Assembly (NCBI GenBank): GCA_963675595.2 | Contig: CAXXLZ010000002.1 | Span: 2,688,001-2,752,000, forward strand | Origin: Thermodesulfobacteriota bacterium | GTDB lineage: Bacteria; Desulfobacterota; Desulfarculia; JACQYL01 | Reading direction: 5' to 3' | Length of the DNA: 64,000 nt | Part shown: in pieces, positions 626 to 13,330 of the stretch | Numbering within the stretch: the first letter of the stretch is position 1 | How the letters are laid out: each line of letters begins with the position of its first letter | Made by a program: the position numbers and the translations under genes | The notes under the pieces: generated by a model | What the model saw: only the letters and a program-made list of their open reading frames with translations | Database searches by the model: none | What the model was told of the DNA's origin: nothing

Positions 626-2175
626 CTAGAGTTTAGAGTCTGGCGACCCTTGGTATAGGAAAAATGCGAATAAAGACAACAAAGTACTTGACATTGCCGC
701 GCGGATGCGCGGCCGCCTTTGGCGGCCCTTTAAGGAAAGAAACCTTTCCTTGGGGGTCAACCAATGGATTCGACGGCTCAAGCACTTATGCTCCTATCGC
801 AGTGGATTTCCTTTCTATTTCAGGCCGTTCCGTGCAGAATAGCTCCGACTCTTCTGGAACTCCTGATGGGATGTATGGTCTGCCGCGGCGGCCATATTTC
901 TTCCGCGCTTCTGGCCGTTCGGCCCCAGTTGTCCTGGACCGCCTATTACAAGGCCATCGAAAAGGGCCGATTCCAATGGCTTGCGCTAGCCCGGCAATGG
1001 ATGCGCCTGATCCTGAAACGGATTCCAAACCGATCCATCGAGTTCGCCATAGACGACTTCCCTTTGCCCAGATCGTCCAAGAAAGCTCCCTGCGCCGGTT
1101 GGCATTACGATCACGCGCACCGGCCCAACCGCCCCAAATTCCTGTGGGGACAGCTTCGGGTTTCTCTGGCTGTCATCTGCCGCCACAAGGGCCGGGTAGC
1201 CGCGTTTCCCCTCTTGTTTCGGCTCATCCGCAAAAAAGGGAACACCACCAAACTGGACGCGGCGCGGCTCTTGATGTCCGTTCTCATGACTTGGCTGCCG
1301 GATCGCTTTCTCATTATTCTGCTGCTCGATGCCTGGTATATGAAAAGCTCCCTGGTGGTTCCCCTGATTCGCGATGGTGTGACGGTCATCGGCCAAGTCC
1401 GCAAAGATACCGCCCTGTTTTTGCCTCCGGACAATCCGCCTCGGAAGAAACGGGGCAGACCCAGAAAGTATGGGGAAAAACTCACGTTGGAAAACATCGG
1501 ACGATTCTGTCGTCCGGTGGAGAAAACCCTCTTTGCCTACGGCTCGGAACGAGTTTTCCAGTTCTACCAAACCAAAGCCAAAGTCCGCTTCCTGGACGGC
1601 CGGTTGTGCAAGATCGTGTGGTGCCGGTTTATGTCCGACAACCCCTCTTGGTCCGATTGGCATCTTCTGATCAGTACCGATCCCGACATGGACGGCGCGG
1701 AAGTGATTACACGCTATGCACGACGATGGTGGACCGAGCCCATGTTCAACGAGATCAAGCACCTGTTCGGACTGAAAAATGCTTGGCAGCAGACACGGCA
1801 GACATTGGCTCGATGGAGCATGATCTTGTGCCTGGCCTACGGCTTGCCACGGCTCTTGGCGCTCTGCCTGGGTCCCAACGCGGCCTATACGATGTTTCCA
1901 ATCCCTTGGAGAAAGAACAGGCCCGCCACCGCCGGCTGGATGGCCGCAGCCATCGGTCGTCTTTTCGGCAACTTAAACGTGCGAGCCATGTGGAACCGGA
2001 AATCCAAAAAATTCCAACCGGAATTCACCGATTCTCCGGAAGACTTGGGGCGCGCTGCCTGATATCCGTGTTCAGTCAATCATCTCAAAGCCTTACGTCA
2101 ACGGTATTCAACCCGTCTTGGAGAACTATGCTCTTCTATACAAACTTGGCTGCCCCGCATGGCTCTAAACTCTAG
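626..2175 (+). mobile_element. Complete insertion sequence (IS701/IS4-like DDE) with 15-bp terminal inverted repeats and 8-bp target-site duplication TCTTCTTA
   Basis: Left end CTAGAGTTTAGAGTC (626-640); the right end reverse-complements to CTAGAGTTTAGAGCC (2161-2175); direct repeats at 618-625 and 2176-2183. Confidence 0.93.
764..2062 (+). CDS. DDE transposase (IS701/IS4-like)
   Basis: 432 aa; FAIDD, LLDAWY, KRGRPRKYG and YARRWWTEPMFNEIK motifs; lies between the inverted repeats. Confidence 0.9.
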   Translation: MDSTAQALMLLSQWISFLFQAVPCRIAPTLLELLMGCMVCRGGHISSALLAVRPQLSWTAYYKAIEKGRFQWLALARQWMRLILKRIPNRSIEFAIDDFPLPRSSKKAPCAGWHYDHAHRPNRPKFLWGQLRVSLAVICRHKGRVAAFPLLFRLIRKKGNTTKLDAARLLMSVLMTWLPDRFLIILLLDAWYMKSSLVVPLIRDGVTVIGQVRKDTALFLPPDNPPRKKRGRPRKYGEKLTLENIGRFCRPVEKTLFAYGSERVFQFYQTKAKVRFLDGRLCKIVWCRFMSDNPSWSDWHLLISTDPDMDGAEVITRYARRWWTEPMFNEIKHLFGLKNAWQQTRQTLARWSMILCLAYGLPRLLALCLGPNAAYTMFPIPWRKNRPATAGWMAAAIGRLFGNLNVRAMWNRKSKKFQPEFTDSPEDLGRAA

Positions 2176-2400: not shown

Positions 2401-3906
2401 ATGCGAACAAATGTCGAAATAGACCCCCTAACTCGCATCGAGGGGCATCTGGCGATACGGCTGGACGTACAGTCGGGAAAGGTTGTTCAGGCTTACAGCT
2501 CCGGAGAGATGTTTCGCGGTTTTGAAGCGATTCTCAAAGGACGTCACCCCATGGATGCCCAGCAGATCACGCAGCGAATCTGCGGAGTCTGCCCCATATC
2601 GCACGGGCTGGCCTCCATTGGAGCGCAGGAGGAAGCTTACGGCGTCAGACCGCCGGAAAACGGACGTCTGGCCCGCAACCTTATCCTCGGAACCAATTAC
2701 ATCCAATCTCACATCGTTCACTTCTACCAGTTATCGGCCCTGGATTTCATCGATATCACCGCCATATTAAAATACTCGGGAGTCGATCCCCTGCTGAACG
2801 GGCTCAAATCCTGGGTCAAATCCCAACTGGATTCGAACGGCATTTTTCCCGCGGCGCCCTTTTTGCCGAGATATGAAGGCCGGTATGTGGAGGACCCCGA
2901 GATCAACATCGGCGCCGTCCGCCACTATCTCGATGCGCTGGAATTTCGGGCTCTGGCCCAGGAAGCCCTGGCCGTGTACGGCGGCAAGGCCCCTCATGCC
3001 ACCGCCCTGATCCCGGGCGGTATTACCGAAAGGATCACCGCCGCCAATATCTCCAAGGTCGCCTCCATCGTAAACAGCCTCCAGGCGTTCGTGGAAACCG
3101 TCTATCTGCCCGATGTGGTGACCGTGGCCAAGTCCTTCCCGGATTACTTCGAGATCGGACGTGGTTGCGGCAATTTTCTCGCCTTTGGAGTTTTTCCCGG
3201 GTCGGACGGGTCCAAATTGCTTCCCGGCGGTCGACTGGCTCAGGGGAAGAAGGCGGATTTCGACCCCGGAAAAATCACCGAGGACACGGCCAGATCCAAG
3301 TTTTCGTCGCCCTCCGGTCTGCACCCCTATGAAGGACGGACCGAACCCGCCCCGGACAAAGCCGAAGCCTACTCATGGCTCAAAGCTCCCCGTTACGACG
3401 GCAAGCCTCACGAGGTCGGCCCTCTGGCCCGGATCCTGGTCGCCTACACCAACGGAGACACCCGGATCAAGAAACTGGTCGATGGTGTTTTACAGAACCT
3501 TTCCCTACCTGTTTCGGCCCTGGATTCGGTCATGGGACGACACGCGGCCCGTGCCTTGGAATGCAAAATCGTGGCCGATCAATGCGGGCATTGGGTTCAG
3601 GAGCTCAAAGCCGGCGAACCCGCCTTTACCGACTTCGAAATCCCCGCCTCGGGCAGAGGCGCCGGACTGACCGAAGCGCCTCGCGGAGCCTTAGGCCACT
3701 GGCTGGAAATCAGGAACCACAGGATATCCAATTATCAATGCGTGGTGCCTTCCACCTGGAATTGTTCCCCCAGAGACGCGGCCGGGGTACCCGGGCCTGT
3801 GGAGACGGCTCTGGAAGGCACTCCGGTGGCCGATCCGAAAAACCCGATCGAGGCGGCCCGCGTCGTCCGATCTTTCGATCCCTGCTTGGCTTGCGCCGTC
3901 CATTGA
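2401..3906 (+). CDS. [NiFe]-hydrogenase large subunit, no C-terminal extension
   Basis: DPLTRIEGH, L1 QRICGVCPISH, EAPRGALGHW, L2 RSFDPCLACAVH directly followed by stop; RBS AGGAG at 2391. Confidence 0.96.
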   Translation: MRTNVEIDPLTRIEGHLAIRLDVQSGKVVQAYSSGEMFRGFEAILKGRHPMDAQQITQRICGVCPISHGLASIGAQEEAYGVRPPENGRLARNLILGTNYIQSHIVHFYQLSALDFIDITAILKYSGVDPLLNGLKSWVKSQLDSNGIFPAAPFLPRYEGRYVEDPEINIGAVRHYLDALEFRALAQEALAVYGGKAPHATALIPGGITERITAANISKVASIVNSLQAFVETVYLPDVVTVAKSFPDYFEIGRGCGNFLAFGVFPGSDGSKLLPGGRLAQGKKADFDPGKITEDTARSKFSSPSGLHPYEGRTEPAPDKAEAYSWLKAPRYDGKPHEVGPLARILVAYTNGDTRIKKLVDGVLQNLSLPVSALDSVMGRHAARALECKIVADQCGHWVQELKAGEPAFTDFEIPASGRGAGLTEAPRGALGHWLEIRNHRISNYQCVVPSTWNCSPRDAAGVPGPVETALEGTPVADPKNPIEAARVVRSFDPCLACAVH

Positions 3907-3920
3907 TTAAGGAGACGCGG

Positions 3921-4844
3921 ATGTCGGATATCAGCCGTCGTGATTTCATAAGGATGGGGGTCACTCTGACCGCGGCATTGGGTCTGAGTACCACCCTGGT
4001 GCCCCGTGTGGCCGAAGCTCTGGAGGAGTTGGCTTCCGGGCAGGCCCCCGTGCTTTGGCTCCAGGGACAAAGCTGCTCCGGATGTTCGGTCTCGTTCCTC
4101 AATTCCGAGCACCCCTCCCCGGCCGAGGTCTTGACCGGATACATTTCCCTCCTGTTCCATCAGACCATCTCCGCAGCCACCGGCCATACGGCCGTAGACA
4201 TCGTCAATCGCTCCATTGAAAAAGGCGGGTACTACCTCGTCGTCGAAGGGGCCATGCCTTTGGGCATGCCTCAAGCCTGTCTCATGGGCCACGAACCCGT
4301 GATCGACCAGGTCGCTCGCGCCGCGGCCAAGTCCGCGGCCGTGATCGCAGTCGGTTCGTGCGCCGCCACGGGAGGCATTCCGGCGGCCGAGAACAATCCC
4401 ACCGGAGCGGTTAGCGTGCCTGAATTCCTGAAGAAGAAGGGAATCAGCAAACCGGTGATCACCCTTCCGGGGTGTCCCGCTCACCCTGACTGGCTGATCG
4501 GAACCATTGTCCACGTACTCAAATTCGGCCTGCCGGCCTTGGACGCCCTCGGGCGCCCCAAGGTCTTCTACGGCCGCCTGATCCATGAGCAATGTCCCCG
4601 ATTCGCCGACTACGAGCGTGAGAATTTCGCAAGAAGTTTCTCCGATGAGGGCTGTCTCTTCAAACTCGGGTGCCTGGGTCCCATCACCCATGCCGATTGC
4701 ACCGTCCGTCACTGGAATCGGGGAGCCAACACGTGCATCAAAGCCGGCGCTCCCTGCATCGGGTGCGCAGCCCCGGACTTCGCCCGCTCGGCCGCACTGC
4801 CGTTCTACCGCAAGGGTGAACCTTCACGTGAGAAGGAGGCCTAA
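3921..4844 (+). CDS. [NiFe]-hydrogenase small subunit with Tat signal peptide
   Basis: [12 protein letters not shown] twin-Arg motif; CSGCS, GSCA, PGCP, HEQC...CLFKLGC, C...[11 protein letters not shown]; no C-terminal TM anchor; start reassigned to ATG 3921 behind AAGGAG. Confidence 0.95.
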
Positions 4845-4845
4845 G

Positions 4846-6435
4846 TTGAAGCTGAACGCCAAGCTGATCCTCTCCCTGGTCGTGGTGCTCATGGTAACCG
4901 TGGTCGGCGCCCAAGCCGTTCAATACTTTTGGACCGTAAGCCTGGTCTCCAAAATCAACGAACACAATCTCAACCTGATCAGGGACGGCCAAGAACAGCA
5001 GGCCGCCAATCTATCCGTTTCCGTGATGCGCGGCATCGAAGGTTCCCTGGTCAGGGGAGAAATGGAGAAATTCACCCGTCTGCTGCAATCCCTCAACGGC
5101 GTGGAAGGCCTTCAAGAAGTCTCCCTCTTCGACGCCGGAGGCAAGGTCACCCACTCCTCCAAACCCGAATTCATCGACCGACAAATTCCGGGCGACATCC
5201 AGGCCGACGTGTTCGGCCATGCCGAAGAATACAAACGCGAGACGGCGGAATCCCTCGAGATATACCACCCTCATCTGGTGATCCCCGATTGCATCCGGTG
5301 CCACACTTCCTGGAAAAACAACAAAATTCGCGGAGCCACCATGCTCCGCTTTTCCAAGGAAGCCCTGGTCAAGGCGCAAGGCGAAGCCGAACACGCGCTG
5401 GCCGTCGCCAAGTCGAATTCCATGTGGTCCGCCGTCATGGCGGTGGCCGCGGTGGTGATCATTTTCGTTGTGGGAATGCTGATCACGGTCAGTAAATTCG
5501 TCGGCCGACCCATGGGCAAATTGGTGGAGATGTTGGAGCAATACGATGTGGATCTAACCCTTGAGATGCCCATCCAGTCCAAAGACGAGATCGGAACGGC
5601 TGCCCGACTGTTGAATCGATTCGTCAACAAACTCAATCAGGTCATCGGCCAAGCCCAGAAAGCGGCCACGGCGGTGGGCGAACACGTGGGCGGCCAAGCC
5701 GCGGCCATTGAACAACTGGCCTCTTCCTCCGCCATTATCGCCCGAACCACCAAAGTCAACTCCGACAACTCCCGTCAGGCTGCCGATCTGATGAACCAGG
5801 TCAGCGATAAGGTCGGACGGGCCAACACCACTATCGCTTCCCTGAGCGAGGCCATGATCGGATTGTCCGATGCCGGTAAGCGCGTCGCCGAAATCATGAG
5901 AGTCATAGACGACATCGCCTTCCAAACGAACCTGTTGGCTTTGAACGCGGCTGTGGAAGCGGCGAGAGCGGGAGAGGCCGGGGCCGGTTTCGCGGTCGTT
6001 GCCGACGAGGTACGCGCCCTCGCCCAGAGATCCGCCGAGGCCGCGGGAAACACCTCCGAACTCATGGAAGCGACTCTTGAACGAATCGAACACAGCAACG
6101 GCATGGTCGCCTCCACCAATGAGATGTTCGATGAAATCACTCGGCAGATCGACGCGGCAAACAAGCTCATGGCCGATATTGCCGAAGGTTCCACCGAGCA
6201 GGCCGAGGGCGTGGATCAGATCAACAGCACGCTCAATGAGGTGGACCGGACCACTCAGATCAATTCCGCCCAGGCGGCGGGTCTATCGGAGACCATGTCT
6301 ACGTTTCAGACTTCTTACTCCAAGACGGCATTTCCCGGGGGCCGCACCGGCGGCGGGCGCAAGGCCATCGAGTACAAGCCGAACGCGCCGGCATCCAAAG
6401 AATCCATGCTCCTTGATTCCAATACGGAATTCTAA
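4846..6435 (+). CDS. Methyl-accepting chemotaxis protein with periplasmic c-type heme (CxxCH) sensor domain
   Basis: TTG start 1 nt after the small-subunit stop, RBS AGGAGG; TM1, CIRCH, TM2, HAMP (SKDEIG), signalling hairpin [34 protein letters not shown]. Confidence 0.93.
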
Positions 6436-7211: not shown

Positions 7212-7433
7212 ATGTGCTGATCTCCTGTTTCCGGTCGGAAACAATTGGATTACAGCCGATGGGTCCTTCCCAAGTTGAAAGAGTTGGGGGAACCCTCCCC
7301 AAGACTTTTGGTATTTAACTACGTTGCACGGTGGCATGCCGCTCATTTTGCGAATCGCGTGCGCGATTCGCAAAAGCGCAATCGGGTTCTTGGGGGCCAT
7401 CGCTCCCCCGGCGGAAAGGCCGGCCCACAATTT

Positions 7434-7793
7434 TTATCGCTCTTTCAGCCTCCGCTCTCCCCTGCGGGATCGAAATACCACGACGCTTCCATAGGCAAAA
7501 TACAGTCCGGCCAGGCCCCTAAAAACACGAGTCGGCCATGCGGCGGGAATGAGGGTCGAAATCAGTACATTGCCGATCCCTGAAAGAAGCATGAGCCCCG
7601 AAAGAATCACCAAAGCGGCTTTGGACCCGCGAAAAGCAAACACCGCAAGCGCGGCGTAGATCACCACGGACGACCAGAGCAGGATCTGGAGATGCGGCGG
7701 TTCCATGGGGTGGGTAATCGAATGGATGCATTTCATCACCGGAATCAGGGTATAGAGTACAATCACGGTCTTGCGGTGAAAAAGCGCATTCAT
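7434..7793 (-). CDS. Small multi-pass membrane protein of unknown function
   Basis: ATG after AAGAGG; three to four hydrophobic segments; basic C-terminus. Confidence 0.55.
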   Translation of the reverse strand: MNALFHRKTVIVLYTLIPVMKCIHSITHPMEPPHLQILLWSSVVIYAALAVFAFRGSKAALVILSGLMLLSGIGNVLISTLIPAAWPTRVFRGLAGLYFAYGSVVVFRSRRGERRLKER

Positions 7794-8057
7794 GGACCTC
7801 TTGATCCGGATCGGCATGACCATGGCAAGATTACTCCACATCTCTTATACTCACGGTTCTTTGTTTCGATTCCAATCCCCAAGCATATCCCCCTCGTTCC
7901 CCCGTACATGAGGCCTCCTCCTTTTTTCAAGCATTTCAGAGGTGACACGGCGACTCGGGAGCCAATACGACCAAACCGCATCGTCGATCTTCCCCACTGA
8001 TTCCGATACCCGCGGTCCGACACGGCAAATCAACCTTTCCCTTGCGGATCATTGGCT

Positions 8058-8087
8058 TTGACATGGTCCCCGACCCTTTGATAGATT
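8058..8087 (+). promoter_or_regulatory. Putative sigma70 promoter for the PTS IIA-Hsp20 pair
   Basis: TTGACA-18 nt-TAGATT with an extended -10 TG. Confidence 0.45.
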
Positions 8088-8218
8088 TAGTATGACTTTT
8101 TTCGTTCCGATGCGGTGTTCGGAGTGATCCGATGGTCGAGCATGAACGCTCGGGGAGACGCGGAGCTCCCGTATGGGGAAGAATCCGGTGGTGAGTGTGA
8201 TGGGTGGGTGCAACGGTC

Positions 8219-8686
8219 ATGGACCTCTTTGAAGCACTTCCGGAAGAGCTTATTTTGCTCGATGTCGACTCCGAGGATAAGGAAAGCCTGTTCGTCAAGG
8301 TTGCGGTTCAACTGAAGAGTCTCGGATATATTCAAGACGAATACGAACTGGTTGAAAGTCTGAAGTACCGGGAAGAAATCATGTCCACGGGCATCGGCGA
8401 CGGGGTGGCTTTCCCGCACGCCGAACTCAGCGACCTCAAAGAACGCATCGTGGTCGTGGCCAGGCTGAAGAAGGCGGTTAAGTTCGAGGCGTTGGACCGG
8501 AAGCCCGTGGATCTCGCTTTCGTGCTCATTACCCCCAAGGGAAGGCACGACCACGTTTTGGACATCCTGGAGACTTTGGCCAGAATGATCCGAGACACGG
8601 ATCTCCTCGCAAGGATTCGTCGGGCCGCGGACGAAAAAGAAGTGCAGTTCGCTTTGAAGATGAGTAAGGATTGCGTCTTCGGCTGA
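8219..8686 (+). CDS. PTS IIA (fructose/nitrogen-regulatory type) domain protein
   Basis: REEIMSTGIGDGVAFPHA (phospho-His motif), FEALDRKPVDLAFVL. Confidence 0.9.
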   Translation: MDLFEALPEELILLDVDSEDKESLFVKVAVQLKSLGYIQDEYELVESLKYREEIMSTGIGDGVAFPHAELSDLKERIVVVARLKKAVKFEALDRKPVDLAFVLITPKGRHDHVLDILETLARMIRDTDLLARIRRAADEKEVQFALKMSKDCVFG

Positions 8687-8746
8687 TATCAATCAGAGAT
8701 TTTTTGTACTGAAACCGAAGGGAGCCCTTCAAGGAGGCGTCTGAAG

Positions 8747-10669: not shown

Positions 10670-11548
10670 ATGATCCTGGGAGCCCACGTTTCCATCGCCG
10701 GGGGCTTGGATAAGGCGCCGGCACACGGCGCATCCATCAAAGCCGAAACGGTGCAGGTGTTCACGCGAAGCCAATTGCAGTGGGGCTCCGGCCCCCTGGA
10801 AAGCGAACAAGTACGGACATTCCGGAAAGGCATTTCGGCTCACAACCTGGAACCCGTCACCGTTCACGCTTCCTATCTAATCAATCCGGCCACCGGAGAC
10901 GAAGAGCTCCTTCACAAGTCCGCGGACTGTCTTGTGGATGATTTGGGCAGAGCCCACGCCTTGGGCGCCGAGTACTTGGTGCTTCACCCCGGGTCCCACG
11001 GAGGTGACGGAGAAAAGATCGGATTGACTCGTGCGGGCAATGCCTTGCGCGGGGTCCTGGAACAAGCCGGCGACGACCGTCCGATGCTGCTCCTGGAAAA
11101 CACCGCGGGCCAGGGAAACGGGATCGGGCACCGATGGGAGCACCTGCGGGACTTGCTCGAAACCCTTCAAGATTTCGGCGGAGTCGGAATCTGCGTGGAC
11201 ACCTGCCACGCCTATGCATCGGGCTACGACCTTTCCGAAGCAACCTACGACGATTTTGTCCGCGAACTGGATCGGATCGTGGGCCTCGAAGCCGTGCGCG
11301 CATTCCACCTGAACGATTCCAAGAGACTTCGGGGAAGCAGAGTTGATCGGCATGAGCGCATCGGTGCGGGGAGCCTGGGTCTGGAGGCGTTCCGACGACT
11401 AACCACGGACCCAAGATTCGCCGGTCTGCCCGGATACCTGGAAGTGCCGGGAGGGAATCCGGCCTACCGGGAGGACCTAAGACTTCTCCGTGGGCTCCGC
11501 GCCCCTTCCCGAAACACCAACATTTCGAACCGTTCCCCCCGCGGATGA
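10670..11548 (+). CDS. nfo: Endonuclease IV
   Basis: GAHVSIAGG, VHASYLIN, LENTAGQG, DTCH, HLNDSK, DRHERIG. Confidence 0.95.
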   Translation: MILGAHVSIAGGLDKAPAHGASIKAETVQVFTRSQLQWGSGPLESEQVRTFRKGISAHNLEPVTVHASYLINPATGDEELLHKSADCLVDDLGRAHALGAEYLVLHPGSHGGDGEKIGLTRAGNALRGVLEQAGDDRPMLLLENTAGQGNGIGHRWEHLRDLLETLQDFGGVGICVDTCHAYASGYDLSEATYDDFVRELDRIVGLEAVRAFHLNDSKRLRGSRVDRHERIGAGSLGLEAFRRLTTDPRFAGLPGYLEVPGGNPAYREDLRLLRGLRAPSRNTNISNRSPRG

Positions 11549-11660
11549 CGACCCCCATTCCGTGAACCGCCGACCCCGGCGCGATTCGTGTGCCTGGATG
11601 GTTCCGAAAGATTGTGCTAAGGTCTTGCGAATCGCGAGAGCACACCGGGAGGGAGCATCC

Positions 11661-12479
11661 GTGGACCCACGGAACAACCGCAAAGCAGGCATCGAGGAGT
11701 CGAGCCGCACGAAGCCGGGTTCGCGGGAACCCGAAAGTTGCCGCATTCTCTCTTTCGAAATCCTTTCCCGCTTTCCGGGCCTCGTGCAGGGAGTATTCTC
11801 CAGACGAGGAGGAGTCAGTCCCGAACCTTATGCGGGCTTGAATCTCGGTTACGGCACCGGCGACGCTCCGGACAACGTAACGAAAAACCTGGCGATCGCG
11901 AGACGGACCGCGGGCGTGGACCGCTGGTTTCTACTCGAACAGGTTCACGGCGATGATGTGGTCGTCGTCGAAGAAGAAAAGGACATTCCGCAAGCCGATG
12001 GAGCCGTCACGGGTCTGCGGGGAACGGGCCTGTTGATCCGTCAAGCGGACTGTGCTTCGGTGATTTTATACGACCCGGTTAAGAACGTGATCGGCGCGGT
12101 GCATTCGGGCTGGAGGGGATCCGTCGAGAACATCGTTGGAAAAACCGTGGACAAGATGAGGACGGTATTCGGATGCCTTCCCCGGGATTTGTGGGCGGGC
12201 CAAGGTCCCTCCCTCGGCCCGTGCTGCGCCGAGTATCGGGATCACAGGACAATGTTCCCTTCTTTCTGGGATCGCTATCACGTAGGCGACCGCCGATTCG
12301 ATTTCTGGAGCCTCGTGGAGGACCAGCTTTCACAGGCGGGCGTACCCCTTGCCCGGATCGAGTCTTGCCGAATCTGCACGCGATGCCGAACCGGAGATTT
12401 TTATTCCTATCGTGGTGAAGGGGTGACCGGGCGTTTCGGCACCTTCATCGGAATGACGGACGGAAACCCGTCCCCTTAG
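11661..12479 (+). CDS. pgeF: PgeF/YfiH purine nucleoside phosphorylase (laccase-domain) protein; start uncertain
   Basis: RRGGVS, LNLG, QVHG, ADC, HSGWRG and FYSYR motifs. Confidence 0.9.
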   Translation: MDPRNNRKAGIEESSRTKPGSREPESCRILSFEILSRFPGLVQGVFSRRGGVSPEPYAGLNLGYGTGDAPDNVTKNLAIARRTAGVDRWFLLEQVHGDDVVVVEEEKDIPQADGAVTGLRGTGLLIRQADCASVILYDPVKNVIGAVHSGWRGSVENIVGKTVDKMRTVFGCLPRDLWAGQGPSLGPCCAEYRDHRTMFPSFWDRYHVGDRRFDFWSLVEDQLSQAGVPLARIESCRICTRCRTGDFYSYRGEGVTGRFGTFIGMTDGNPSP

Positions 12480-12547
12480 AAAGACTGAACAGGAGGCGCA
12501 AGGGCCGACCGGCCGGATTCGGCTTGTCTTCCCCACGCATTTTCGTA

Positions 12548-13330
12548 ATGTTTCAAACCCAAGCTCAAATCGTAGATCGTGTGGAATTGGAGGCGGAGTC
12601 CTATTTCCTGGACTGCCGGGCCCCGGAGATCGCCTCCACGGCCGAGCCCGGCCAGTTCGTCATGGTGCGGGTTTCCGACGGACTTGATCCGCTCCTGAGA
12701 CGCCCCTTATCCATTCACCAAGTAAGCGAGGAGCGTTTCGGGCTGCTCTTTCGAACGGCCGGTAAGGGCACGGCCTTGCTGAGTCGAAAAAGGATCGGCG
12801 CTTGGATCGACGTCGTGGGTCCCCTGGGACGCGGCTTCCGATGGTCGCCGGGTGTGGAAGAGGTTCTACTGGTGGCCGGGGGCCGAGGGGTGGCCCCGCT
12901 CCTGTTCCTGGCTCAGCGATTGGCGAAGGAGACTCCTCCTCCCAAAATGCGGCTGCTCTACGGAACACGGACCAAATCCGAAATCGTGAGAACCGAACCT
13001 TTCAAGGCCCTGGGAGTCGAGGTGCTCACCGCAACGGAAGACGGAACCGAAGGATATCACGGCATGGTCACCGATCTGCCGCCTTCTCTGATCTCGCAAG
13101 GGCGCACTGCGGTTTTTGCCTGCGGCCCCACGGCCATGTTCCGGGCACTGTCCTCCGCGATCTCCGATCCCCTGATTCCCGTTCAGGTCTCCATGGAAGC
13201 GCACATGAGTTGCGGATTGGGCGCCTGTCGAGGATGTGTGGTGAAATCCGGACACGGTTATGCGCACGTCTGCCAAGACGGCCCCGTGTTTGCCATCGAA
13301 GACCTGAACTGGGAGGAGGACGTCCATTGA
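12548..13330 (+). CDS. pyrK: Dihydroorotate dehydrogenase B electron-transfer subunit
   Basis: PGQFVM, LRRPLS, GPLGRGF, ACGP, MSCGLGACRGC...VCQDGP. Confidence 0.93.
   Translation: MFQTQAQIVDRVELEAESYFLDCRAPEIASTAEPGQFVMVRVSDGLDPLLRRPLSIHQVSEERFGLLFRTAGKGTALLSRKRIGAWIDVVGPLGRGFRWSPGVEEVLLVAGGRGVAPLLFLAQRLAKETPPPKMRLLYGTRTKSEIVRTEPFKALGVEVLTATEDGTEGYHGMVTDLPPSLISQGRTAVFACGPTAMFRALSSAISDPLIPVQVSMEAHMSCGLGACRGCVVKSGHGYAHVCQDGPVFAIEDLNWEEDVH

Follow-up and report, generated by a model that had tools for sequence, protein, structure and literature searches.

A conserved hydrogenase-chemoreceptor gene cassette as a candidate for periplasmic hydrogen sensing

In anaerobic communities hydrogen (H2) serves as a central currency, and to our knowledge no receptor has been described by which bacteria swim towards or away from it. 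The question whether a periplasmic hydrogenase could serve as the perceiving part of such a receptor was raised by a stretch of 64,000 nucleotides (the window) from a Thermodesulfobacteriota bacterium (contig CAXXLZ010000002.1, positions 2,688,001 to 2,752,000). Its plus strand carries three tightly spaced genes, which encode in this order the large subunit (L) and the small subunit (S) of a [NiFe] hydrogenase and a methyl-accepting chemotaxis protein (MCP) with a putative haem-binding sensor domain. The trio is a conserved cassette, and we propose with moderate confidence that it constitutes a dedicated periplasmic H2-sensing hydrogenase that reduces the haem of the receptor and so controls chemotaxis. 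The trio is likely to be a hydrogen-steering device that has not been described before. The pairing of a sensory hydrogenase with a signal transducer is known already; what is new here is the location, the lineage, the partner and the proposed coupling.

Conservation of the gene trio and co-variation with enzyme type

The gene order was established from the list of open reading frames (ORFs), the raw sequence and the translations. L (2401..3906, 501 residues) matches PF00374 (1e-160) and NCBIfam NF033181 (650.7 bits, cut-off 600). S (3921..4844, 307 residues, start ATG at 3921, stop TAA at 4842-4844) matches two small-subunit domains, and its start codon is preceded by AGGAG at 3910-3914. The MCP gene (4846..6435, 529 residues) begins with TTG and ends with TAA at 6433-6435; only a single base, G 4845, separates the S stop from this start, and a Shine-Dalgarno-like GAGAAGGAGG, read from the sequence, lies within the 3' end of the S gene (4830..4839), 6 nucleotides ahead of it. 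The first-pass annotation of this DNA had described the same anatomy (order, coordinates, TTG spacing, the DPCLACAVH end of L, the twin-arginine signal and the CIRCH motif), and every detail of it is borne out by the sequence and the translations.

A scan of one genome per species returned 346 relatives, the best 80 of which (55-82% identity) were examined with a hidden Markov model that was built from the sensor region of the MCP and run against all ORFs of the 80 loci. The sensor-MCP adjoins the hydrogenase in 67 of these 80 loci; in eight it is absent, four are truncated where the contig stops, and one (L026) is partial, with an MCP fragment at the contig start immediately before L. Since these loci were chosen as the most similar among 346 relatives, this proportion is valid for close relatives only, and genome relatedness inflates all counts. 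The order L-S-MCP is kept in 64 of the 67 linked loci, two of them with about 700 nucleotides between L and S, while the remaining three show the orders MCP-L-S, S-MCP-L or MCP-L. Between the S stop and the MCP start lie 4.5 nucleotides at the median; the gap is at most 40 nucleotides in 56 of 63 loci and becomes a 4-nucleotide overlap in 16 (one artefactual value, from L032, is left out of this count). Among 41 related genomes, seven besides the source genome carry an orthologue above 60% identity, and these belong to the same class; all seven have the order L-S-MCP and an MCP that is homologous over its full length and contains C[IV]RCH.

Clustering of the neighbouring ORFs in 68 loci (the 67 linked loci plus the window) returned only three recurrent families, present in 65, 61 and 54 loci, whereas the most frequent family after these is found in 9. 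The genes around the trio thus lack conservation, and the three genes behave as a unit of their own. A fourth conserved gene was looked for among cytochrome, Hyp, Che and chaperone genes and none was found, the next family being limited to those 9 of 68 loci. Kinase or GGDEF outputs attached to the same sensor were likewise not seen: 56 of the 75 ORFs that follow the hydrogenase genes carry MCPsignal, the others being sensors cut short, genes other than sensors or ORFs picked in error.

The record titles of the loci name Desulfarculia, Desulfobacterales, Syntrophobacteraceae, Thermodesulfobacteriota, Verrucomicrobiota, Planctomycetota, Magnetococcales, Riflebacteria, Calditrichota, Hydrogenedentes and others. 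A cultured strain, Desulfocarbo indianensis SCBM, is among the carriers of the cassette (locus L012). Many of these records are metagenome bins, and two bear implausible labels (Promethearchaeota and Bifidobacteriaceae); the bins so labelled hold the cassette contigs L025 (3.4 kb) and L061 and are probably binning errors.

The association was also followed in the opposite direction. An even sample of 401 phylum genomes was searched with the sensor profile and with the large subunit, and 19 sensor matches of at least 118 bits over most of the sensor were read; in 14 of the 19 cases the same contig carries a hydrogenase large subunit no more than about 3 kb away. In this sample, ten sensor-linked enzymes (45-53% identical to L of the window) all have the order L-S-MCP and a stop right after the final His (10/10), whereas ten unlinked enzymes (45-54% identical) all have the order S-L and an extension of about 15 residues (10/10). 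The unlinked ten were hand-picked from the better-scoring matches and include L101 and the second hydrogenase of the source genome. Sensor linkage, L-S order and loss of the extension co-vary in 20 of 20 loci. Linkage of the hydrogenase to haem-c signalling genes, on which the first-pass annotation had staked its reading, is kept in 67 of the 80 close relatives and in all ten enzymes at 45-53% identity.

One member of the unlinked set deserves separate mention. L101 (G414:C242:957-2468) has an in-frame TGA in DP*LGCAIH and is presumably a selenocysteine [NiFeSe] hydrogenase, judging from its reading frame; it is 54-55% identical to L of the window and is a near relative with S-L order and an extension.

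Phylogenetic analysis of 101 large subunits placed the S-L rows L071 and L101 together with the extension-less rows in one supported group, which comprises 92 rows and has an unresolved base. A constrained tree that held 89 extension-less rows as one clade (L088 was left out of the constraint owing to faulty sequence extraction) scored 51 log-likelihood units above a quick free search, with a p-AU (approximately unbiased test) of 0.93; a single origin is therefore not rejected. Seven L-S loci that lack the MCP are nested among MCP-linked ones, for example L028 as sister to L025, and this nesting suggests that the receptor gene was secondarily lost or relocated in them. Considered as a whole, the enzymes may form a single-origin, Tat-exported (twin-arginine translocation), extension-less class present in genomes labelled as many phyla, which would be not respiratory but the H2-perceiving part of a three-protein chemoreceptor in which the distal [4Fe-4S] cluster hands electrons to the Cache haem and a haem methionine switch drives CheA. 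We give this wider proposal an even chance.

The hydrogenase: an exported enzyme without a C-terminal extension

Both nickel-binding motifs are present in L: RICGVC (residues 59-64, with C61 and C64) and DPCLACAVH, which forms the last nine codons (residues 493-501). The stop codon TGA (3904-3906) follows directly upon His501, so that no cleavable extension is encoded. In a large protein collection many homologues are 501-504 residues long; among the 120 that were listed, at identities of at least 61% and with the query included, 119 end exactly at DPCxxCxxH. The first-pass annotation had stressed the missing extension of this gene. The stop after His501 stands; what does not stand is any peculiarity of the gene, as the absence is the trait of a large clade. 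At the position occupied by selenocysteine in [NiFeSe] enzymes, L has a cysteine (codon TGC), and cysteine is found there in all 120 listed homologues. A selenocysteine read-through of the terminal TGA was considered and rejected: the downstream frame overlaps the S start, and in 10 further extension-less relatives the stop stands directly after the His while the sequences that follow are mutually unrelated.

An exported hydrogenase without an extension appears feasible, because a Tat-exported membrane-bound hydrogenase engineered to lack the extension is still supplied with its cofactor and still exported, as reported in the accessible part of PMC7294309. As [NiFe] hydrogenases that lack the extension by nature, that source names groups 2b, 2d, 4c, 4e and 4g, none of which is a Tat-exported group-1 enzyme. 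The class described here is missing from that list, as far as its accessible part goes, and from the [NiFe] scheme of HydDB, and it bears on how Tat-exported [NiFe] enzymes mature without a proteolytic checkpoint.

Export is indicated by the small subunit. Its signal peptide matches TIGR01409 over residues 4-33 and contains the twin-arginine motif SRRDFIR (SRRDFI at 3933..3950); in the family alignment R6 and R7 are invariant in 63/63 sequences and F9 is nearly invariant. S has no membrane anchor, as it lacks a hydrophobic C-terminal tail and spans only positions 14-303 of the 365-position hydA model. The cluster ligands are C52, C55, C147 and C185 (proximal), H222, C225, C245 and C251 (distal) and C260, C272, C279 and C282 (medial), where the assignment to the three clusters was taken over from D. 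gigas numbering, which we assume to apply. All 12 ligand positions are invariant in 63/63 family sequences. C272, the cysteine of 'NTC', aligns with the extra cysteine of HysB, the [NiFeSe] small subunit of D. vulgaris. From these residues S is predicted to hold three [4Fe-4S] clusters, the medial one with four cysteine ligands.

The closest solved relatives of both subunits are the periplasmic, group 1a-type [NiFeSe] enzymes of D. vulgaris and Desulfomicrobium. The best solved match is HysAB of D. vulgaris Hildenborough (2WPN, 5JSH, 5JSU), with E values of 7.7e-127 for L and 1.9e-76 for S. Like the cassette enzyme, HysAB is a Tat-exported heterodimer with an anchor-less small subunit, a four-Cys medial cluster and three [4Fe-4S] clusters. 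Unlike HysAB, the cassette has Cys in place of selenocysteine in DPCxxC, the order L-S instead of S-L, and a haem-MCP gene behind the enzyme; moreover, the deposited HysA of 507 residues runs 15 residues past the final His, whereas L of the window has no extension. Measured against group 1 uptake hydrogenases in general, the cassette enzyme shares the nickel motifs and the Tat signal but departs from them in the cleaved extension, the S-L order and the adjacent cytochrome b/c partner.

The first-pass annotation had likened L to the regulatory hydrogenases HoxBC and HupUV. L is not related to this group 2b; its closest structures are group-1 enzymes, [NiFeSe] first, and the likeness is one of analogy only. 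It consists in a sensor hydrogenase that is paired with a signal transducer (HoxBC-HoxJ, HupUV-HupT) and has no extension on its large subunit. The differences are considerable, since the group 2b enzymes are cytoplasmic, have no Tat signal, are linked to a kinase and control transcription, whereas the cassette enzyme falls by sequence among the group-1 periplasmic enzymes, is Tat-exported and has as its partner an MCP, reached through a haem domain. The two groups also seem to differ in the gas channel. Regulatory hydrogenases have a narrowed channel with Ile and Phe at two positions, in contrast to Val63 (nearly invariant) and Leu111 (invariant) in L; the mapping is tentative and takes these positions to be equivalent to V74 and L122 of D. 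fructosovorans.

The source genome (6.79 Mb, 3 contigs, 98% complete) encodes a second [NiFe] large subunit 2.3 Mb away, which has the usual S-L order and a 15-residue extension. The sole match to a HycI-type protease in this genome adjoins this second, standard hydrogenase. The genome also encodes HypD and cytochrome-c assembly genes.

The chemoreceptor and its sensor domain

The MCP consists of a first transmembrane helix (TM1), a periplasmic Cache-type haem domain, a second transmembrane helix (TM2), a HAMP domain (5494..5640, residues 217-265; PF00672, E 5.5e-6) and a signalling domain (5785..6252, residues 314-469; PF00015, MCPsignal, E 1.8e-40). It is encoded by a single-copy gene in the source genome. 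The c-type haem attachment motif CIRCH (5290..5304, residues 149-153, with C149, C152 and H153) sits between the hydrophobic stretches at about residues 7-25 and 191-213. Eleven positions are invariant in 63/63 aligned sensors, namely R70, E72, M73, K75, G88, L94, C149, R151, C152, H153 and W156. A haem may be attached covalently at CxxCH; the motif is invariant, and the source genome has genes for cytochrome-c assembly.

The sensor domain (4927..5415, about residues 28-190) adopts a single-Cache fold according to an AlphaFold2 model and to structure matches. In the model of residues 1-268 (mean pLDDT, the model's per-residue confidence, 89.1), there are a long N-terminal helix, a second helix and a beta sheet, with helices at residues 3-70 and 172-233, and CxxCH is placed on a short helix (147-152) inserted between the strands 136-144 and 161-170. 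Foldseek matches of the model were WalK, GSU0935 (3b42, E 1.9e-5), GSU0582 (3b47, E 3e-4) and CitA; VIA-align matches were KinD (Z 12.9), WalK (Z 11.8) and Tll0287 (5b82, Z 9.8), the structure on which the sCache_heme family was founded, with Cache domains at Z 10-13. The two Geobacter haem-c MCPs GSU0582 and GSU0935, which the first-pass annotation had named as parallels, are thus both recovered by fold. No match of the sensor to PF11845 (DUF3365/Tll0287) was obtained at E<=0.01, a result that says nothing on more distant homology, and a match to PF21563 stayed below threshold (16.8 bits against a cut-off of 27). On the evidence of the model, the sensor appears to be a distant fold-level relative of sCache_heme and not a proven member of that family.

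The comparison with the Geobacter receptors (3B47, 3B42) and with sCache_heme (DUF3365/Tll0287, PF11845) is informative for the haem. All are periplasmic single-Cache domains with CxxCH on a short inserted helix; GSU0582 and GSU0935 are MCPs with one c-type haem, and the cassette receptor is likewise an MCP with one predicted haem. In contrast, identity to the Geobacter proteins is only 19-23%, and the cassette sensor has an invariant RGEMxKF motif of its own. It is also linked to a hydrogenase, whereas the accessible portions of PMC8396549 and PMC12889525 contain no mention of a hydrogenase. As described in the accessible text of PMC8396549, the haem ligands of GSU0935 are His144 and Met60, with the methionine bound in the reduced state and off in the oxidised state; the same text states that GSU0582 and GSU0935 switch their methionine ligation with redox state, at midpoints of -156 mV and -251 mV, respectively. 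The spacing of H153 and M73 in the cassette sensor matches that of His144 and Met60, and by this analogy Met73 (5062..5064), which lies in the invariant motif R70-G-E72-M73-x-K75, is a candidate distal haem ligand and a His/Met redox switch seems plausible.

Variants of the receptor occur among the relatives. The sensor-MCP of a Verrucomicrobiota locus (L075:9461-11428) ends in a hemerythrin domain (PF01814, E 2e-12) placed behind the signalling domain. Two Magnetococcales receptors (L049:9850-11967 and L065:9706-11847) have a longer sensor region with two CxxCH motifs, at residues 128 and 179 in L049 and at 131 and 182 in L065. Tandem double sensor-MCPs follow the hydrogenase genes at L032:5232-6920 and 7241-8746 and at L081:9560-11080 and 11077-12777.

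Proposed working, rival explanations and surroundings of the cassette

As we picture it, the L-S heterodimer would be folded first and then carried to the periplasm by the Tat signal of S, and L, made without a C-terminal extension, would need no endopeptidase. Oxidation of H2 in the periplasm would send electrons through the three [4Fe-4S] clusters to the single c-type haem (C149/C152/H153) of the Cache domain. Reduction of this haem would alter its coordination, Met73 being a ligand of the reduced but not of the oxidised haem, as in GSU0935, and the change would be relayed through TM2, the HAMP domain and the signalling domain to CheA and so to the swimming direction. A dynamic signal would require the haem to be re-oxidised, presumably by periplasmic acceptors, and its redox state would then report the supply of H2 relative to that of oxidants. 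We infer the electron transfer from hydrogenase to haem, the methionine switch, the behavioural output and the sign of that output. A complex prediction of S (38-307) with the sensor (28-195), made with 63-row alignments, gave a score of 0.00, which counts neither for nor against a contact.

No paper describing a [NiFe] hydrogenase coupled to a haem MCP was returned by a literature search of full texts without supplements. In its accessible part, PMC12727194 tabulates a cluster of 87 MCP genes among the genes next to [NiFe] large subunits and does not comment on it. The only paper on hydrogen taxis that the search returned, PMC3817446, concerns the archaeon Methanococcus and names no receptor in its accessible text. 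The [NiFe] table of HydDB contains no chemotaxis-linked class, as far as the accessible part of PMC5037454 goes. That part does include an [FeFe] group C2, labelled 'chemotactic (putative)', for which H2 sensing by way of methyl-accepting chemotaxis proteins was proposed; unlike it, the cassette combines a periplasmic [NiFe] enzyme with a separate haem-Cache receptor. The cassette enzyme differs in location as well, group C2 enzymes being cytoplasmic. Judged by function, three systems come closest to the cassette: the group 2b regulatory hydrogenases, the [FeFe] group C2 class and the Geobacter haem-c MCPs. DcrA of D. vulgaris is reportedly a sulfate-reducer MCP with a periplasmic CxxCH, proposed as a redox or oxygen sensor, and we know of no hydrogenase linkage for it.

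A number of observations weigh against a dedicated sensor. Eight of the 80 loci have no MCP, and seven of these (L023, L027, L028, L029, L063, L066 and L090) are extension-less L-S loci, where either the receptor gene is placed elsewhere or the enzyme can do without a neighbouring receptor; the eighth, L071, has the standard S-L order and an extension. Five sensor homologues in the phylum sample are not found beside a matched hydrogenase: those of G314 and G230, the second of the G060 copies, and two additional G168 copies on other contigs. In G338, sensor and hydrogenases are located on separate contigs. The surroundings of the active site look catalytic, to judge from Val63 and Leu111, so that the enzyme could also serve energy metabolism, and in the relatives G007 and G019 the query finds no match at E<=1e-100 other than the cassette enzyme.

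The rival that fares best is energy taxis, in which an ordinary respiratory uptake enzyme feeds a periplasmic cytochrome pool and the haem equilibrates with that pool and not with the enzyme; the receptor would then read the overall redox state of the periplasm, H2 being one input among others. The catalytic-type channel residues and the full conservation of the cluster ligands would suit such an enzyme, as would the respiratory, periplasmic nature of the nearest solved relatives, its position as sole query match in G007 and G019 and the seven L-S loci without an adjacent MCP. A sensor of the pool, however, needs no hydrogenase of its own, yet 67 of 80 loci keep the two side by side, with no conserved cytochrome gene next to them. 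The linkage moreover co-varies with gene order and loss of the extension, both of which are specific to the enzyme, and the source genome possesses a separate standard hydrogenase with its own protease. We consider energy taxis doubtful on this balance.

The haem Cache domain might instead sense a diatomic gas (NO or CO, for example), as has been suggested for signalling sCache_heme domains, with the hydrogenase doing no more than keeping the haem ferrous. The accessible text of the preprint PMC12889525 reports that a HAMP-linked sCache_heme member binds NO, that of PMC8396549 reports binding of both NO and CO by GSU0582 and GSU0935, and it is these proteins that the cassette sensor resembles in fold. 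What makes gas sensing improbable is the invariance of Met73 (63/63), which favours a six-coordinate haem of the electron-transfer or redox-switch type. In addition, the sensor falls short of PF11845 at E<=0.01, a whole [NiFe] enzyme would be an uneconomical reductant, and the preprint makes no mention of a hydrogenase in its accessible text.

The same H2 sensing could also lead to an output other than swimming, with the MCP steering biofilm formation, pili or gene expression. The 11 CheW and 32 MCP matches of the source genome suggest several chemosensory pathways, no che gene lies beside the cassette, and the signalling domains of homologues vary in length, many tblastn matches ending near residue 330. 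Against this stand the 6 flagellin matches in the same genome and the fact that MCPs most often serve taxis, and we rate a non-motility output as slightly less probable than gas sensing. Finally, a coincidental or purely transcriptional linkage, in which the receptor would answer to some other signal and have no more than an operon in common with the enzyme, is left some room by the neutral complex prediction but is very improbable given an adjacency kept across record titles of several phyla despite differing flanks, a median S-MCP gap of 4.5 nucleotides, an association found from hydrogenase to sensor as well as from sensor to hydrogenase, and the perfect co-variation with enzyme traits in 20/20 loci.

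Should the dedicated H2-sensing hydrogenase be confirmed, it would be the first molecular receptor of bacterial hydrogen taxis and the first periplasmic sensory hydrogenase, and it would present an enzyme that acts through electron transfer as the ligand-binding partner of a chemoreceptor. The cassette is a testable candidate for an H2 receptor and is present in sulfate reducers, Verrucomicrobiota, Planctomycetota, magnetotactic bacteria and others. Such a receptor would account for the way in which H2 consumers and syntrophic partners locate one another, and the cassette suggests a design for H2 biosensors.

In the window, L is preceded at about 340 nucleotides by an ORF for a DDE-type transposase (764-2062, plus strand, within 664-2175; PF13546 and PF01609), and the upstream flank of the cassette in this genome is an insertion element. 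Downstream of the MCP lie MaoC-like, PTS-EIIA, Hsp20, Memo-like and AP-endonuclease-type TIM-barrel (PF01261) genes. Neither flank is related to the cassette. No cytochrome b or protease gene is among the genes downstream of the MCP in the window; the family searches of these neighbours agree here with the first-pass annotation, which had noted that neither a cytochrome b nor a maturation protease gene follows.

Three of the sensor homologues that lie apart from the matched enzymes (G060:C1:1438439-1439179, G314:C8:49419-50207 and G230:C10:52970-53767) score 125-148 bits and have no hydrogenase match nearby at E<=1e-120; they could be free-standing paralogues or partners of more distant enzymes. 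Two of the loci without an MCP have neighbours of their own. At L028:9755-14571 (Thermodesulfobacteriota), hypA, hypB, hypF, hypC and hypD follow L-S in the place of the MCP, while L025, its closest relative in the tree, keeps the MCP. At L090:8526-13145, the extension-less L-S pair has a DUF4405 membrane protein and a sigma-54 response regulator downstream and a histidine kinase and response regulator pair upstream, which may be an alternative partner or output.

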